From positions 1-49,328 of the IMG/VR virus record IMGVR_UViG_2778261065_000024: a DNA stretch of 49,328 nucleotides; one strand, written 5' to 3'. The DNA comes from a virus (lineage: Duplodnaviria; Heunggongvirae; Uroviricota; Caudoviricetes). A program made the translations under genes and the position numbers. Positions 1 to 11,822 of this stretch are shown here, piece after piece; position 1 is the stretch's first letter; the number at the start of each line of letters is the position of its first letter. Below the pieces are notes generated by a model, which saw only the letters and a list, made by a program, of their open reading frames with translations, made no database searches and was not told the DNA's origin.

Positions 1-1521
1 TTATTCAGGCTTTAATTTATTGATAATAGAATCTACCATTTTAATGCCTGCCTCATTGACTATGACTGAATTGACTACTCTATCAAAATAGTCTTCTATA
101 TGGTGGGAAAATAGGAAAGCAGCACTTGATGGTTTTTTGTTCTTTTCAACTGCAGATTGCAAGACTTCATGAGGCGGAATTTTAAACCTTTTGCATGATG
201 CAATGAGATATTCAAACTCTTCAAATGATAGACAAAAAATATTCTCTGTAGGGATATGATAGTTATGTTTAAACTTGTCATATATCTTATTCATCTCATC
301 TTTAGCATAAGTATTAGCTAGGATACTACCATTGCCTAAGAAAAGGTTTTTATATGTAATGCAAATGATATATGAGTTAGCCCTGAATGGAGCTATTATT
401 CGCTCATTAGAGTATATTTCTCGATTAACTTCGTGAGATTGTTCGATTGCTTTTAATACCGATTTCTTTATTTTTCCTGCAATATCCTCAGGGCGTAATG
501 TTACCATGCCTTTTTGGTGTATCTCAACGCCTTTAGCATCAATGAAAATATTTGCCTCAGTATGTGGAATGAAATAATCAACTACTTTATTATCTTTAGG
601 TAGTCGTTCTTTAAGGTATTTTTCGTTATGAAAATCAATTTCGCTTTCTTTTAGTATTAATTCCAGTGCATTTTCAAATACATTTCCAAAGCTATCCATG
701 AACTTCTCGGCATCAGTTCTTCTTAAAAGATCATATATGAACGTCTGTATGCTTGTTGAAGTCAGTTGTGTGTGTATCTGAAAATACTCTGAACCTTTTT
801 TTATTAATGGTTTTTCAAGGAAAGGTGATGATGAGTAGTATTCAAGCAAAGGTTTATCATAGGTTTTTGATTTGCAAAATGTAGATAGTTCATTGTAATT
901 TATTGATATTGCATCAAGAAATTTCTCAATGGTATTTCTAGGAATGATGTCAAATAATATAGTAAATGTATCTACATTCATTTTTCTCACGGGATGCTCT
1001 TCTGTTATGTGAGTTATTAATATGTAAGATAGCTTAAGAAAGTCTTCGATAGATACATTCGTGATAGTAAAAAAACTTGTCTTTATTTTATGGTTTTTTT
1101 CAAGTTCTGAAAATAGAAAGACTTGTCTGCTAATTGTGTTTAGAGCGTCAATTTTCTGGTAGATTCCTTGTTGGTATAGATTATTTCTAATGAAGAAATG
1201 CATGCCATTCTTCCTCTCAAGACCGATAGGAATAATGTTCAAGGTTTCATAAGTTTTTTGGAAGAGTTTTATTGCTTGATTTTTATCGAGGATTTTGAAT
1301 TTTTTATTCTTGCCAGTTACTGACGCAGACCACTTTAGACATAAATTAACAATCCAAGGCATGTGTCGTAACATGTGGATATTATCTTCAAATTTTTGTA
1401 AGTTATATTGCATACAGAATTCGATAAATAAATCAGGGGAATAACCTTGGATTTCTGAACGAATAGCATCCATTCTTAACTTTGCAACCGCATCAGATTG
1501 AATATCTAATTTTTGAATCAC
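1..1521 (-). CDS. hypothetical 506-aa protein; AT-rich cargo gene directly downstream of the prophage integrase; family not recognised
   Basis: Uninterrupted 506-codon ORF (TAA at 1-3) starting 12 bp after the int stop, same strand; visibly AT-rich relative to neighbouring phage genes; C-terminal half has VVDYF...IFIDAKG, which could be a PD-(D/E)xK-like motif (tentative). Confidence 0.7.
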   Translation of the reverse strand: MIQKLDIQSDAVAKLRMDAIRSEIQGYSPDLFIEFCMQYNLQKFEDNIHMLRHMPWIVNLCLKWSASVTGKNKKFKILDKNQAIKLFQKTYETLNIIPIGLERKNGMHFFIRNNLYQQGIYQKIDALNTISRQVFLFSELEKNHKIKTSFFTITNVSIEDFLKLSYILITHITEEHPVRKMNVDTFTILFDIIPRNTIEKFLDAISINYNELSTFCKSKTYDKPLLEYYSSSPFLEKPLIKKGSEYFQIHTQLTSTSIQTFIYDLLRRTDAEKFMDSFGNVFENALELILKESEIDFHNEKYLKERLPKDNKVVDYFIPHTEANIFIDAKGVEIHQKGMVTLRPEDIAGKIKKSVLKAIEQSHEVNREIYSNERIIAPFRANSYIICITYKNLFLGNGSILANTYAKDEMNKIYDKFKHNYHIPTENIFCLSFEEFEYLIASCKRFKIPPHEVLQSAVEKNKKPSSAAFLFSHHIEDYFDRVVNSVIVNEAGIKMVDSIINKLKPE

Positions 1522-2548: not shown

Positions 2549-3181
2549 TCAAAGGCTCTTAATGATTTTCAGTGCGCGGCCTATTACCTCAATGTCATCC
2601 AGTTCGCACTCAAACGATGAATCATCCTGATGCACTACTAATCTGTTTCCCGGGAGTCGTGTCAATTTTACAATGCTTTTTATCCCGTCGATGTCCACTA
2701 ACCACGTACCATTTACTGGTGGTGTTTGGTTGCGATCTATTAAATAAGAATCACCAGAAGTAGTCACCAGCAGCAGGTTGCTTGAGTCTGAGGGGAGTAT
2801 GCTGCTATCAATGATTGCTTTTCCAGCATCGATCAGCAAACCTCCGTTGAGAGTTGCCTTGTCAATTTCAGGAGATACAAGCTCCGAAAGAGGTTTAACT
2901 TTGCTAGAGTTCACGGAATTGATATTTTTTTTAGGGTCAATGTTTGAACCTGGATCGCCCTGTCCGGTAGTTAGCCACAGTAAAGAAACTCCTGTTTCCA
3001 AAGCGCACTGAATCACCCATTCTGCAGGAAAACTATCTCTTAAGTATCTGTTTGCCATAGTGCTTTTTGATGCGCCCAAGTGATCGCAAAGTTGCTGTCT
3101 GGACTTGAAATCATAGGCTGCCATTAGCCTATGGATAGCCTCTCTTCCCCCTGTATTCTCGCCAGCTTTTACTTGTATCAT
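2549..3181 (-). CDS. cI: CI-type immunity repressor (phage 186-like)
   Basis: 210-aa ORF divergent from an Apl-like gene and upstream of int; N-terminal HTH-like region; position and size fit 186 CI; no clear LexA-type cleavage motifs. Confidence 0.65.
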   Translation of the reverse strand: MIQVKAGENTGGREAIHRLMAAYDFKSRQQLCDHLGASKSTMANRYLRDSFPAEWVIQCALETGVSLLWLTTGQGDPGSNIDPKKNINSVNSSKVKPLSELVSPEIDKATLNGGLLIDAGKAIIDSSILPSDSSNLLLVTTSGDSYLIDRNQTPPVNGTWLVDIDGIKSIVKLTRLPGNRLVVHQDDSSFECELDDIEVIGRALKIIKSL

Positions 3182-5132: not shown

Positions 5133-5986
5133 GCACCATCCTGAAATGGGCGGGAAATAAAACCGCCATTATGTCCGAACTGAAAAAACACCTTCCTGCT
5201 GGCCCGCGACTGGTTGAACCTTTCGCGGGTTCCTGTGCTGTGATGATGGAGACGGATTACCCCAGCTATCTGGTTGCGGATATTAATCCTGATTTAATCA
5301 ACCTCTATAAAAAGGTTGCCGCTGATTGTGAATCGTTTATATCTCGCGCCAGAGTTTTATTTGAGATCGCAAACAGGGAGGTGGCTTATTACAACATAAG
5401 GCAGGAGTTTAATTACTCCACTGAAATTACTGATTTCATGAAAGCGGTATATTTCCTGTATCTCAATCGTCACGGTTACCGTGGTTTATGTCGCTATAAC
5501 AAGAGCGGGCATTTCAACATTCCCTACGGTAATTATAAAAATCCGTATTTCCCTGAAAAAGAAATTCGCGCATTTGCAGAAAAAGCCCAGCGGGCAACGT
5601 TTATCTGCGCCAGCTTTGATGAAACGCTGGCGATGTTGAAGGCGGGGGATGTGGTGTATTGCGATCCGCCGTATGACGGCACGTTTTCCGGTTATCACAC
5701 TGACGGCTTCACTGAAGATGACCAGTATCACCTGGCATCCGTTCTTGAACATCGGTCATCAGAAGGACATCCGGTCATTGTTTCTAACAGTGACACATCC
5801 CTGATCCGTTCGCTGTATCGCAATTTTACTCACCACTACATCAAGGCAAAACGCAACATCGGTGTGGCAGCTGGCGAGGGTAAATCAGCAACAGAAATCA
5901 TTGCTGTTTCCGGGCCGCGCTGCTGGGTGGGATTTGATTATTCGCGTGGCGTGGACAGTTCTGCCGTGTACGGAGTACGTGCATGA
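5129..5986 (+). CDS. dam: DNA adenine methyltransferase (Dam-like, GATC N6-adenine MTase)
   Basis: N-terminal [16 protein letters not shown] (SAM-binding motif) and catalytic DPPY (VYCDPPYDG); overlaps neighbours as in an operon. Confidence 0.85.
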
Positions 5987-8397
5987 GTCATGCCGATATG
6001 AACAACTGCTGCGGCTTTAACGAGGCTACCGCAGCATTCTCATGGAACAGCCCGAAAAAGGCCATTAACCCTTATCTGGACCCGGCGGAAGTTGCGCCGG
6101 TTTCTGCGCTTTCAAACCTGATCACTCTGTACGCTGCCGATAACGAGCAGGAACAACTGCGCCGTGAGGCACTGAGTGATCAGGTCTGGGAGCGTTATTT
6201 CTTTAATGAATCCCGTGATCCTGTCCAGCGCGAAATGGAGCAGGATAAGCTAATTAGCCGGGCAAAGCTGGCGCATGAGCAGCAGCGTTTTAATCCAGAC
6301 ATGGTCATTCTGGCGGATGTCAACGCCCAGCCTTCCCATATCAGCAAGCCGCTGATGCAACGTATTAAATACTTCAGCAACCTGGGCAGGCCAAAGGCTT
6401 ATTCCCGCTATTTGCGTGAGACGATTAAGCCATGCTTGGAACGACTGGAGCATGTACGCGACAGCCAGCTATCTGCATCTTTTCGTTTTATGGCAAGCCA
6501 TGAAGGGCTGGACGGTCTGCTGATCCTGCCTGAAATGAGTCAGGATCAGGTGAAACGCCTGTCCACCCTTGTCGCTGCGCATATGAGCATGTGTCTTGAT
6601 GCCGCTTGTGGTGATTTGTACGCCTCCGATGATGTTAAGCCGGAAGAAATCCGCAAGACATGGGAAAAGGTGGCAGCAGAAACCCTGCGACTGGATGTCA
6701 TACCGCCTGCGTTTGAGCAACTCCGCCGGAAAAGAAACCGCCGCAAACCTGTGCCCTATGAACTCATTCCGGGTTCGCTGGCGCGTATGCTGTGCGCCGA
6801 CTGGTGGTATCGGAAATTATGGAAGATGCGTTGCGAATGGCGGGAAGAGCAGTTGCGTGCTGTCTGTCTGGTCAGCAAAAAAGCATCTCCCTATGTCAGC
6901 TATGAAGCCGTGATGCATAAACGTGAGCAGCGCCGTAAGTCGCTGGAGTTTTTCCGTTCTCATGAACTGGTGAACGAAGACGGCGACACGCTGGACATGG
7001 AGGATGTGGTAAACGCCAGCAGCAGCAACCCTGCGCATCGCCGCAATGAGATGATGGCCTGTGTTAAAGGCCTGGAGCTTATCGCGGAAATACGCGGTGA
7101 CTGCGCCGTTTTCTACACCATCACCTGTCCGTCACGTTTCCATTCCACGCTAAATAACGGCAGGCCCAACCCGACCTGGACAAATGCGACGGTAAGACAA
7201 AGCAGTGATTATCTGGTTGGCATGTTTGCTGCATTTCGTAAGGCGATGCACAAAGCCGGATTGCGCTGGTATGGCGTGCGGGTGGCTGAGCCGCATCATG
7301 ACGGTACAGTTCACTGGCACCTGTTGTGTTTTATGCGCAAAAAAGATCGCCGCGCCATTACTGCTTTGTTGCGTAAGTTTGCCATTCGTGAAGACCGCGA
7401 GGAGCTGGGGAATAACACGGGACCACGCTTTAAGTCTGAGTTGATTAACCCGCGCAAAGGAACGCCGACAAGCTACATCGCGAAATATATCAGTAAGAAC
7501 ATTGACGGGCGTGGTCTGGCTGGCGAGATCAGCAAGGAAACGGGTAAATCCCTGCGTGATAACGCTGAATACGTGAATGCCTGGGCGTCTCTGCATCGTG
7601 TTCAGCAATTCCGCTTCTTTGGCATTCCGGGGCGTCAGGCTTACCGTGAACTGCGATTGCTGGCTGGTCAGGCGGCAAGGCAACAGGGTGACAAAAAAGC
7701 AGGTGCGCCGGTACTGGATAACCCGCGCCTTGATGCAATCCTGGCTGCTGCTGATGCTGGTTGTTTTGCCACCTACATCATGAAGCAGGGCGGCGTACTG
7801 GTTCCCCGTAAATATCACCTCATCAGAACCGCTTATGAAATCAACGAAGAGCCAACCGCCTATGGCGATCACGGTATTCGTATTTATGGCATCTGGTCAC
7901 CCATTGCAGAGGGCAAGATCTGCACTCATGCAGTGAAGTGGAAAATGGTTCGTAAGGCCGTTGACATTCAGGAGGCGGCAGCCGACCAGGGCGCTTGCGC
8001 CCCTTGGACTCGTGGCAATAACTGTCCCCTTGCTGAAAATTTGAACCAACAGGAGAAAGATAAATCAGCTGATGGGGGCCCCAGAACGGACTTTACCCGC
8101 ATGGATGACAAGGAGTTGCACGATTACCTGCACAGTATGAACAAAAAGGGGCGCCGGGAACTGGCTGCAAGGTTACGTCTGGTGAAACCGAAACGGCGTA
8201 GAGACTACAAACAGCGAATTACAGACCATCAACGACAGCAGCTCGTCTATGAACTGAAATCCAGAGGATTTGATGGCAGCGAGAAAGAGGTCGATTTACT
8301 CCTTCGCGGCGGCAGTATTCCGTCAGGAGCAGGCCTGCGTATCTTCTATCGGAACCAGCGTTTGCAGGAAGATGATAAGTGGCGGAACCTGTATTAA
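5983..8397 (+). CDS. A: replication initiation endonuclease gpA (rolling-circle)
   Basis: 804 aa; conserved block shared with the second copy at 41425-44247 ([36 protein letters not shown]); position after the early genes. Confidence 0.9.
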
Positions 8398-8467
8398 TTA
8401 CGCTGGTTAACAATTCGTGCTCTTAATAATACCAGGCATATCAGGCTGATAAGCGTAAAAAAAACGT

Positions 8468-8510
8468 TTTACATCAGTAAGATTATTATATACTGTAAAT
8501 ATAAACAGTG
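8468..8510 (+). promoter_or_regulatory. SOS-regulated promoter: TTTACA -35, TATACT -10, overlapping LexA box TACTGTAAATATAAACAGTG (8491-8510)
   Basis: CTGT-N8-ACAG core (CTGT 8493-8496, ACAG 8505-8508), close to the LexA consensus TACTGTATATATATACAGTA, 40 bp upstream of the 8552 ORF. Confidence 0.6.
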
Positions 8511-8551
8511 GTTATACATACAGCATTGCGTGTGGTGTCATAGGAGGAAAG

Positions 8552-8740
8552 ATGCAGGACTATTTTTTGGAGTCTTTGAAGCTCCAGCGCATTGATTTTT
8601 TTCTTAAGCTTGTAGCGGCTAGTGAGTGTAGTGATGAAGAGAAGGGGCTGGCTCTGCAGTGGGTTTCTGAATTGACTGATGAACTCATGGCAAAAATCAG
8701 AAGCCACGAATACAACCGCTCAATGGATGTCATCAGCTGA
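8552..8740 (+). CDS. small protein (62 aa), possibly a Tum-like antirepressor N-terminal module
   Basis: ATG preceded by TAGGAGGAAAG; downstream of the LexA box; followed 10 bp later by a DinI-like gene. Confidence 0.45.
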   Translation: MQDYFLESLKLQRIDFFLKLVAASECSDEEKGLALQWVSELTDELMAKIRSHEYNRSMDVIS

Positions 8741-8750
8741 GGTGACTTTT

Positions 8751-8984
8751 ATGCGCATTGAAATAATGATCGATAAAGAGCAGAAGATTAGCCAGTCTAC
8801 CCTGGACGCCCTTGAATCCGAGCTTTACCGCAATCTGCGCCCCCTGTATCCCAAAACGGTAATCCGTATCCGTAAAGGTAGCTCTAACGGTGTGGAACTG
8901 ACCGGACTGCAACTGGACGAAGAAAGAAAACAAGTGATGAAAATTATGCAGAAGGTGTGGGAAGACGACAGCTGGCTGTATTGA
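8751..8984 (+). CDS. DinI-family protein
   Basis: 77 aa MRIEIMIDK....TVIRIRKGSSNGVELTGLQLDEERKQVMKIMQKVWEDDSW, resembling the DinI family fold; GAGGTG RBS. Confidence 0.75.
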   Translation: MRIEIMIDKEQKISQSTLDALESELYRNLRPLYPKTVIRIRKGSSNGVELTGLQLDEERKQVMKIMQKVWEDDSWLY

Positions 8985-9097
8985 TTTTGTCAATAGACGC
9001 TTGTTTTTACTAATCAAAAAGGGTTACATATGAGTGAGAGGCGATGTCAATCAGATATCGCCTTGTTTTTTGTCAAGAAAAGAATAATAGGCTAAAA

Positions 9098-9775
9098 ATG
9101 AAAATTAATAATGTAGCGTTACCAATATCTCTTGCTGTAATCCTAACTGGTTGCGTGCCACATGCTTCTAACCGAAATATCACTGCTATTGAAGTGGTGA
9201 AGCCTGCTATTGGGCAAAGTGCTACCGCCTACATGGGCGATCCCATTATCACATCTGCTACTGGATTTAAAACGGACGTACTAGAACTTGGTGCGGCTAA
9301 TGGTGCATTGTCTTCTATCGCTGCTGGTACATATTGCAGTGAGGGGAATGGAATTTACCGCAATTATCATAACCCTCAAGCTGTTGCGTTAAAAAATCTC
9401 TATGGGCAAATCGGTAACTATGTTGATTATGTTAGTTACGATGCTGCAAAAAATGAGATATCACCGCCAAATGGTACTTCTTATACTGCATCAGAAATTT
9501 CTATCAAACGTGTTCCTGATGGGCTGTGTCGAGTTAGTAACTCATTGGTTAAGACTATCGAATACAATGGAAATGCAGGCGGTGTAATGAAGTTCACCTA
9601 TCGTGAATTTGCAAACGATATGGCTCGTGCAGCATTTACAACAGATTTTTCTGTAGATTCTAAGGGAAGTGACGTTATCGCTTACAAAGGTGCCAAGTTC
9701 AAAGTGAACAAGGCTGATAACTCGTCTATTTCTTATACAATTATTTCTGGCTTTGACAAGGCTGTCACGTTCTAG
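9098..9775 (+). CDS. putative lipoprotein (cargo gene; function unknown)
   Basis: N-terminus MKINNVALPISLAVILTGC with lipobox LTGC; alternative start at 9044 with GAGAGG RBS; moderately AT-rich; lies between A and the packaging genes. Confidence 0.7.
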   Translation: MKINNVALPISLAVILTGCVPHASNRNITAIEVVKPAIGQSATAYMGDPIITSATGFKTDVLELGAANGALSSIAAGTYCSEGNGIYRNYHNPQAVALKNLYGQIGNYVDYVSYDAAKNEISPPNGTSYTASEISIKRVPDGLCRVSNSLVKTIEYNGNAGGVMKFTYREFANDMARAAFTTDFSVDSKGSDVIAYKGAKFKVNKADNSSISYTIISGFDKAVTF

Positions 9776-10077: not shown

Positions 10078-10776
10078 ATGGTTATGTTAGTGGATGACTG
10101 TCCACGATGTGGATCACAAAAAATAGCGTTTGATGTTAATGGGCTGAATTGCACTAGGGTTTACAATGCATTGGGCGGGGGTAAAACATACGAGTACGAG
10201 GTCTATTGTGTTTGCCGAGAGTGTCATAAAACGACAATGTTTCTTTGCAGACCTTTAACGAAAAATAAAACTTTAGATGGCTATAATTGGGAAAGTGGAA
10301 TATTCGGCTTAAAGGAAGTTGCAGAGGTTGTTAGGCCTATATCACCGGCAGACTTAGCAGTAGAGGAGCCACCAGAGTTCTTACCTGAGCATATCAATAG
10401 TGCATATGAGGAAGGGGCGAAATGTTTGGCTATAGGTTGTTATAATGCAGCAGCAACCATGTTTAGGCTTTGCCTTGATTATGCCACAAAAGGACTTCTT
10501 CCTGATGGGGAGCAAGGGCCTGCGCAAAAAATAAGGAGAAGCCTAGGGTTAAGAATGGAGTGGTTATTTGATAATCATCTACTGCCTGAAGCTTTAAGGG
10601 AACTAGCTGAATGCGTTAAAGATGACGGAAATGATGGAGCGCATGAAGGTATTTTGGATAAAGCTGCTGCTGAGGATCTTGAAGATTTTACCTATCTTTT
10701 TTTAGAACGGCTTTACACTGAACCTCAACGCCTTATCGAAGCCAAGACAAGGCGTGAACAAAGAAGAAACAAATAA
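10078..10776 (+). CDS. zinc-ribbon protein with DUF4145-like C-terminal domain (cargo gene, candidate defence)
   Basis: 232 aa; strong RBS AGGGAGGAG; N-terminal CPRCG...CVCRECH (C4 zinc ribbon); C-terminal VKDDGNDGAHEG resembles the GN..AH signature I associate with DUF4145; sits between candidate cos and the Q stop. Confidence 0.75.
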   Translation: MVMLVDDCPRCGSQKIAFDVNGLNCTRVYNALGGGKTYEYEVYCVCRECHKTTMFLCRPLTKNKTLDGYNWESGIFGLKEVAEVVRPISPADLAVEEPPEFLPEHINSAYEEGAKCLAIGCYNAAATMFRLCLDYATKGLLPDGEQGPAQKIRRSLGLRMEWLFDNHLLPEALRELAECVKDDGNDGAHEGILDKAAAEDLEDFTYLFLERLYTEPQRLIEAKTRREQRRNK

Positions 10777-10784
10777 GTTCGGAA

Positions 10785-11822
10785 TTATTCTTCTGAAAGA
10801 ATATAGGGCGTAAATTTAATCACTTCTTCGCCCAGCCAGTCGTTCAGCTCTTGTAGCCTTTTTTGCAAGGGAGTTAATTCATTACGTACAAATACGCGAC
10901 TGGCCTTCTCCACATCCCCAAACCCTCCAACATTATTAGGCATAATCCCCATCATTTGCGGCGGCACGCGGTGCGCAGCCATCATGTCGTCGCGGCTGAC
11001 ATTTTTGATATTCAAAAACTCATCCTTCGCCGCGACTTCTGACAATGGGATGATCTGAAGCCCGTCTTTTTTGCCGTTAGGCGAGTACATAAACAGGTTG
11101 CGGAAGTTGCCTGGACCTTTGGCGCTTTTCATCGCATTGCGGAGGTTGTTCACATCCTCCTGGTTTTGCGCGGCATCGGTCATGTACATGATAAAGCCCG
11201 CATGACTGCCGTTAATGTAATACTTGCGACGGAACAGCGTGGCGGACTCGTTGAGCAGGGCTGACGGAATGGCAGAAAGATAACCGGGCAGGCCGTAGAT
11301 CTCCTGATTAATATCCGGTTCCATCAGATGAAAAATGCTGCCTTTCGTGAACTGATACGGCTGGGTTGTCATACCGTATTGCACAAACCAGTAGGTATCC
11401 AGGTCTAACCCGCGTCGGGTGTATTTTGCCAGTGCAGGCTCAAGGGCGATAACTTCACCGAAGCGGTTCGTGCGTTTCTCCAGGTAGGCGTTACCAAAAA
11501 CCAGATAGTCCTGCACAAAACGCGAAAAAGCCTGCTGGCTGAGCAGCGGGTGAGGGATGTAGGTGCTGGTCAGAATGTTGCACTTTACTGCAATCGGGGA
11601 ACTATGATGCACGGCAGCGCGGAAGGTGCGCGCCAGTCCGTCAAAGCTGACGGGCGGCTCATACCAGCGGTCCATCTGTACGCATTCCACATAATCCAGC
11701 AGTTCTCGGCGGTCCAGAACAGGAACGGGATCGCCGAAGCTGAATGCTTCGGCTGTAGTTTGACTTTTAAGCTGGATCTGTTTCGTCGCCGCAGCGCGGT
11801 TCTTCTTACTCTTTCCCATCAA
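10785..11822 (-). CDS. Q: portal protein gpQ
   Basis: 345 aa; P2 Q-like length and position; paralogous to the 36740-37786 copy (HRVPPQMMG, GDVEKA). Confidence 0.9.
   Translation of the reverse strand: MMGKSKKNRAAATKQIQLKSQTTAEAFSFGDPVPVLDRRELLDYVECVQMDRWYEPPVSFDGLARTFRAAVHHSSPIAVKCNILTSTYIPHPLLSQQAFSRFVQDYLVFGNAYLEKRTNRFGEVIALEPALAKYTRRGLDLDTYWFVQYGMTTQPYQFTKGSIFHLMEPDINQEIYGLPGYLSAIPSALLNESATLFRRKYYINGSHAGFIMYMTDAAQNQEDVNNLRNAMKSAKGPGNFRNLFMYSPNGKKDGLQIIPLSEVAAKDEFLNIKNVSRDDMMAAHRVPPQMMGIMPNNVGGFGDVEKASRVFVRNELTPLQKRLQELNDWLGEEVIKFTPYILSEE

Follow-up and report, generated by a model that had tools for sequence, protein, structure and literature searches.

A probable LexA-controlled tumA/tumB operon as the SOS induction module of a Fels-2/186-like prophage

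The window analysed here (the whole stretch of 49,328 nucleotides, IMG/VR virus record IMGVR_UViG_2778261065_000024) very probably carries, at an estimated probability of roughly 0.9, an SOS operon of two genes by which a Fels-2/186-like (Peduoviridae) prophage is induced. This operon would be repressed by LexA, its first product, TumA, would sequester the CI repressor, and its second product, a DinI-like protein, would be an accessory. Sequence elements, homologies, conservation and purifying selection are all observed for the window locus. The preliminary description of this DNA had proposed that a Tum-like induction module is the DNA-damage sensor of the prophage; this proposal is supported by the LexA box, by the Tum homology of both ORFs, by the presence of a 186-type CI and by the published genetics of the Escherichia coli HS prophage DuoHS. 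The features of the module are as follows:

8468-8473, plus strand: -35 hexamer TTTACA of the SOS promoter, equivalent of p95 (read from the sequence)
8489-8496, plus strand: -10 region, overlapping the left arm of the LexA box (read from the sequence)
8491-8510, no strand assigned: LexA (SOS) box TACTGTAAATATAAACAGTG, 17/20 to the consensus
8543-8547, plus strand: Shine-Dalgarno sequence GGAGG for ORF1, 4 nt 5' of the ATG (read from the sequence)
8552-8740, plus strand: ORF1, tumA-type antirepressor gene, 62 aa (identity to ECHS_RS04495, profile homology to 186 Tum)
8739-8745, plus strand: Shine-Dalgarno sequence GAGGTGA for ORF2, overlapping the ORF1 stop codon (read from the sequence)
8751-8984, plus strand: ORF2, tumB / DinI-family gene, 77 aa (Pfam DinI, C-terminal half of 186 Tum)
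9038-9073, plus strand: terminator-like hairpin with T-run, counterpart of 186 t95a (terminator scan)

Several known systems share this organization. Indeed (i) in the E. coli HS prophage DuoHS, the tum gene ECHS_RS04495 encodes a protein identical to ORF1 (62/62) and the adjacent DinI-like ECHS_RS04500 is nearly identical to ORF2 (76/77); the 701-bp module has 99.1% DNA identity, and the LexA box, the gene order and the downstream lipoprotein-like gene are shared, whereas CI (189 aa versus 210 aa in the window) and the cargo past the lipoprotein gene differ, (ii) the same two ORFs (STM2728 / STM2726.1) are found in the Salmonella prophage Fels-2, 60/62 and 76/77 identical to those of the window, and (iii) both Fels-2 and PSP3 have, as in the window, the split arrangement after gene A with a LexA box upstream. 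PSP3 annotates its two genes as tumA ('similar to 5' end 186 tum; UV induction of prophage') and tumB ('similar to dinI and 3' end of 186 tum'), but differs from the window in that its TumA belongs to another subfamily (phrog_1993) and its CI has 286 aa and two HTH domains. The SOS operon of coliphage 186 (p95, LexA site, tum, orf97) shares with the window its position, the promoter/LexA-box layout and a 186-type CI; 186 Tum is, however, one fused 146-aa polypeptide with internal starts, whereas the window has separate genes in different frames. The 186 Tum protein is described as an anti-CI factor, sequestering CI once p95 is no longer repressed by LexA (PMC7708051). More distantly, the dinI-antirepressor operons of the Salmonella prophages Gifsy-1/2/3 (GfoA, GftA) also have a LexA box driving a small antirepressor and a DinI homologue, but in the reversed order, with dinI first, in lambdoid phages and with another repressor family; in these operons the repressor is inactivated by binding and not by cleavage (PMC3121763).

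According to supplementary file 3 of PMC12055606 (Nat Microbiol 2025), ECHS_RS04495 is the 'tum' that was removed in the Phollow study; its deletion abolished mitomycin C lysis and virion foci of DuoHS, and lexA(Ind-) did likewise, so that both tum and a cleavable LexA are required for induction. The two DuoHS tests (PMC12055606) are essentially the experiment put forward in the preliminary description, carried out on a prophage with an identical ORF1.

ORF1 and ORF2 lie directly downstream of a P2/186 gpA-type replication gene of 804 aa (5983-8397; PF05840, E 2.6e-127). The location after A, which had been likened to that of 186 Tum, is thus borne out, the p95-LexA site-tum segment of 186 also following gene A. 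A portal-like ORF is present at 10785-11822 on the minus strand, and the order A-ORF1-(ORF2)-Q holds in most species-level loci with both flanks. A 186-type CI, CII and an integrase are encoded in the same prophage. An ORF of at least 506 aa (1-1521, minus strand), which runs off the start of the window and adjoins the integrase, lies outside the prophage early region.

The LexA box at 8491-8510, with its core CTGT-N8-ACAG at 8493-8508, is the sole site in the 49.3-kb window that matches the consensus TACTGTATATATATACAGTA with at most three mismatches. Two -10 candidates, TATACT (8489-8494, 15-nt spacer) and TACTGT (8491-8496, 17-nt spacer), both overlap its left arm. The SOS promoter at 8468-8496 went unreported in a generic promoter scan, because TACTGT matches at 3/6 positions only and the 15-nt spacer is outside the scan range; its assignment is therefore based on the layout of 186 p95, annotated with a -35 TTCACA, a -10 TACTGT and a LexA site, which the window promoter shares, and on conservation. 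Aligning the promoter region to that of 186 by MAFFT was uninformative, the sequences being too diverged, and the LexA box was used as the anchor instead. In the resulting set of about 35 loci (Escherichia, Salmonella, Citrobacter, Enterobacter, Klebsiella, Raoultella, Pantoea, Tatumella, Erwinia and others), TTTACA, TA-TACTGT and the CTG-N10-CAG arms are conserved and the distance from TTTACA to the box is fixed, while the approximately 17 bases between the -35 and the box vary freely. Of 81 viral loci (80 IMG/VR loci, L005-L084, plus the window), 77 retain the strict CTGT-N8-ACAG core; three of the other four have a single-base core change and in one the promoter region is replaced. Furthermore, CTG-N10-CAG is kept in 31 of 33 species-level loci, which come from a single-protein scan of genome contigs, the exceptions being one contig end and one truncated ORF1. 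LexA presumably binds directly at 8491-8510.

An alternative would be that the LexA-box-like sequence is a chance AT-rich palindrome and that the operon is constitutive or under another regulator. The silence of the generic promoter scan at this site is in line with this alternative, which nevertheless has almost no probability: a match of this quality was obtained in 0/100 dinucleotide-preserving shuffles, the CTG-N10-CAG arms are conserved across genera while adjoining spacer bases vary, 186 and PSP3 have near-perfect LexA boxes at the same place, and the prophage DuoHS, whose module is 99.1% identical, is not induced in a lexA(Ind-) host (PMC12055606). The near-consensus SOS box overlapping a promoter that had been noticed in the letters of this DNA is thus present, with 17/20 matches, overlap with the -10 and conservation across genera, and the promoter does read into a 62-aa ORF (8552-8740) and then into a DinI-family ORF (8751-8984).

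Two observations concern the surroundings of this control region. An A-tract, AAAAAA, at 8459-8466 of the window, directly 5' of the -35, is conserved in the roughly 35 box-anchored loci and might act like an UP element or belong to the end of the gene A transcript. In one rare decayed variant (L005, 7900-8000), unrelated sequence stands in place of the LexA box and promoter.

The first gene, ORF1, is preceded by an AGGAGG that is conserved in relatives. Its product shares about 20% identity with residues 1-46 of 186 Tum, and BLASTP of ORF1 against 186 Tum gave no match; no meaningful match was found in Pfam, in PADLOC or in a PDB sequence search. A search of 1.84 billion representative proteins returned 67 matches, nearly all short stand-alone proteins (52-133 aa), and did not reach 186 Tum; leaving out one 217-aa and one 1218-aa entry, none of the longer matches has the matching part N-terminal to a DinI-sized extension. 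The family alignment built from this search has the pattern M.DLF.ES..LQRI.L..RLVA...CS...K.LA..W..ELT.EL. Compared by hhalign with the single 186 Tum sequence, this alignment gave a probability of 94.7% over Tum residues 3-44, and the profile-profile comparison with the N-terminal region of 186-type Tum proteins gave 96.4% (E 1e-9) over residues 1-46 of both. Furthermore, 186 Tum matches the PHROG family of ORF1, phrog_698 (E 2.4e-5), and ORF1 matches phrog_1993, the family of PSP3 TumA (E 0.002). On the basis of the negative BLASTP together with the hhalign results and the reciprocal PHROG matches, ORF1 is remotely homologous to the antirepressor (N-terminal) half of Tum, a relationship recognizable at the profile level only. 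The AlphaFold2 model of ORF1 is a two-helix hairpin (helices 2-22 and 28-61; pLDDT 87.7).

The second gene, ORF2, encodes a protein of the DinI family, as had been suggested from its translation: it matches the Pfam DinI family PF06183 over profile positions 1-63 of 63 (E 6.6e-23; 81.3 bits for a gathering cut-off of 24.2), matches phrog_189 and aligns over its full length with the solved E. coli DinI 1GHH (E 2.4e-6). Its C-terminal segment EERKQVMKIMQKVWEDDSW aligns with the DinI C-terminus. Proteins of the DinI family are expected to bind RecA filaments through the acidic C-terminal helix. The chromosomal E. coli DinI (1GHH) and ORF2 both belong to Pfam DinI, but ORF2 is phage-borne and is predicted to be co-transcribed with an antirepressor gene. 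ORF2 is also 41% identical to residues 71-146 of 186 Tum (E 3e-24). The alignment to 186 Tum that the preliminary description had suggested as a check therefore held by direct sequence comparison for ORF2 (41%), and for ORF1 it failed by BLASTP and held by profiles.

It could be argued from this asymmetry that the DinI-like ORF2 is the actual induction factor, acting for example through RecA, and that ORF1 is an unrelated small leader protein, since a recognizable Pfam domain and clear BLASTP similarity to 186 Tum are found in ORF2 only. This is very unlikely. Indeed (i) the annotation of 186 presents the DinI-only products as modulators, full-length Tum alone inhibiting CI, (ii) 13 of the 33 species-level loci (L091, L093, L102, L105, L110-L117, L119) keep the LexA box and the tumA homologue with no DinI-like gene after it, (iii) in the DuoHS deletion (PMC12055606), the start codon was joined to the stop codon of the 62-aa ORF alone, although a polar effect on ORF2 translation is possible, and (iv) the antirepressor activity of PSP3 lies in the upstream gene (PMC3121763). 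The lack of a DinI-like gene in these 13 loci implies that it is dispensable for the module and fits an accessory role. ORF1 is thus retained as the probable inducer, and the DinI-like product would be, judging from these comparisons, accessory to induction in this prophage.

The two ORFs are in different frames, as had been reported, and 10 nt apart, the ORF1 stop codon (8738-8740) preceding the ORF2 start (8751). Since ORF1 stops before ORF2 starts in another frame, the locus is assigned to the split tumA/tumB form; the fused single-polypeptide Tum of phage 186 is absent from the window locus. Whether such a split is natural or reflects a disrupted gene had been left unsettled in the preliminary description. 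According to the latter possibility, ORF1 and ORF2 would derive from a 186-type fused tum that a frameshift or a stop codon had interrupted, i.e. be a pseudogene in a prophage that is no longer SOS-inducible; the different frames and a joint length of roughly the 146 aa of 186 Tum would fit, and the frameshifted ORF2 of one locus (L049) indicates that decay can occur. However, all 81 viral loci have an intact ORF1, and in 79 of them an intact ORF2 follows, likewise spaced by 10 nt, the exceptions being one contig end and one frameshift; the same split is also seen in Fels-2, PSP3 and E. coli HS, again with this gap and a separate ribosome-binding site. The G-rich element at the ORF1-ORF2 junction is kept in relatives. 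Moreover, both ORFs are under strong purifying selection, with dN/dS of 0.03-0.14 for ORF1 and 0.07-0.14 for ORF2 against species-level relatives at 71-94% protein identity, synonymous sites being near saturation. A prophage with an identical ORF1 is inducible in an ORF1-dependent manner (PMC12055606), and stand-alone short forms are common in the 186-type subfamily. The broken-gene explanation, already contradicted by the conserved split, the purifying selection and this ORF1-dependent induction elsewhere, is extremely improbable.

According to Lemire et al. (PMC3121763), tum is split in two in PSP3 and Fels-2, with the antirepressor activity in the upstream gene; for this they cite Bunny et al. 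2002, the original source being a personal communication by Christie. In view of the PSP3/Fels-2 split, the 79/81 intact loci, the low dN/dS and the possession of their own ribosome-binding sites, the two-gene form is clearly natural and maintained, and not a broken gene; the question raised earlier is settled in favour of a natural tumA/tumB pair, in agreement with the PSP3 annotation. The module is present in 1125 of 5426 complete E. coli genomes, i.e. about a fifth. Stand-alone proteins of 63-78 aa, some of them named 'Tum protein', are common among the close homologues of 186 Tum residues 1-70 (P0183-P0302); tum fusion or splitting would therefore, to judge from the presence of stand-alone forms within the 186-type subfamily, have happened repeatedly or be polymorphic. 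The phage 186 record also contains an internal ribosome-binding site and a GTG start that give the DinI part separately. The same two activities are thus delivered either by a fused protein or by two separate ones.

Decay of the module was seen in single loci: besides the frameshifted DinI-like ORF of L049 (at about 8200-8430), tumA is cut to 20 aa by a stop codon in L117 (8001-8179), both being rare variants.

The CI-type nature previously attributed to the prophage is confirmed by a 186-type CI encoded at 2549-3181 on the minus strand (PF07022, E 6e-31; PF16452, E 4.8e-28). This CI was compared with that of locus L004 (1234-1803) and those of the IMG/VR loci L005-L084. Despite identical TumA proteins, the CI of the window (210 aa) and that of E. 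coli HS (189 aa) share 43% identity, the divergence being mainly in the C-terminal domain; the action of TumA on the CI of the window is therefore extrapolated, and TumA would be expected to bind CI in this prophage. Among prophages with 98-100% identical TumA, 42 distinct CI sequences (152-318 aa) were found, several of them carrying two tandem HTH domains; the HTH domains have a median identity of 74%, as against 33% for the C-terminal domains. In the species-level loci, no tight relation between TumA identity and CI HTH-domain identity was detected, as illustrated by an ORF1 at 94% with a CI HTH at 56% and, conversely, an ORF1 at 71% with a CI HTH at 86%. The number of CI variants per TumA and this weak coupling suggest that TumA may recognize a conserved HTH feature and act across CI variants. 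It is tentatively proposed, at less than even odds, that one TumA allele could be a general antirepressor for many 186-type CI variants by way of a conserved HTH surface (FPA(E/D)W(V/I)IQCALETG region).

In the proposed mechanism, host LexA bound at 8491-8510 in the lysogen would occlude the -10 region and the operon would be silent. Following DNA damage, RecA would become active, LexA would cleave itself, and transcription would start and then end at the hairpin 9038-9073. TumA, a predicted 62-aa helical hairpin, would bind the 186-type CI (2549-3181, minus strand) non-covalently and keep it off its operators, whereupon the early lytic promoter would fire, CI being sequestered and not cleaved. 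The stand-alone DinI-family protein probably modulates RecA filaments and could thereby influence the strength or the duration of the SOS signal; on the other hand, deletions of dinI homologues in Gifsy prophages had no measurable effect on induction (PMC3121763). In phage 186, the same two activities are supplied by one fused 146-aa ORF with an internal start for the DinI part, and the split form of the window corresponds to the PSP3/Fels-2 (tumA/tumB) arrangement.

The hairpin at 9038-9073 is the probable end of the SOS operon. The terminator scan describes a GC-rich 11-bp stem followed by GTTTTTTGTC, and the hairpin is kept in both the MFE and the centroid RNA folds (z -2.6). Downstream of it, two further genes were predicted on the plus strand. 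The first (9098-9775) codes for a lipoprotein-like product with a MKINNVALPISLAVILTGC lipobox, assigned to phrog_1353 ('unknown function') and having no Pfam match. A promoter-like site of its own lies past the terminator, at 9070-9099, and the ATG at 9044 given as its start by the ORF finder sits inside the terminator hairpin and is probably not the true start. In 186 the corresponding slot is taken by orf97, a gene not homologous to this one (17% identity when the two are aligned globally). The second (10078-10776), between the SOS operon and the portal gene, codes for a DUF4145 protein (PF13643, E 4.5e-7) whose PADLOC match to the candidate defence protein PD-T7-4 is weak (E 1.2e-6); relatives carry other cargo in this slot, and the annotation of RE-2010 has an 'abortive infection protein' there.

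Both the tumA/tumB split and the dependence of this form on LexA are already in the literature, and nothing scientifically new is established here. The remaining points are the annotation gap for the 62-aa antirepressor and the idea of one TumA serving many CI types. RefSeq calls the 62-aa antirepressor a 'hypothetical protein', PHROGs lists its family phrog_698 under 'unknown function', and Pfam has no family for it; as a recognizable label is attached to the DinI-like neighbour only, automated annotation misses the gene that actually triggers induction. If the proposal on TumA specificity is true, SOS-induced TumA from one Fels-2-like prophage could induce co-resident P2-like prophages with different CI in trans. 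The module accounts for DNA-damage sensing by this prophage in the absence of a self-cleaving repressor, which is relevant to any prediction of the P2-like prophages that antibiotics induce.
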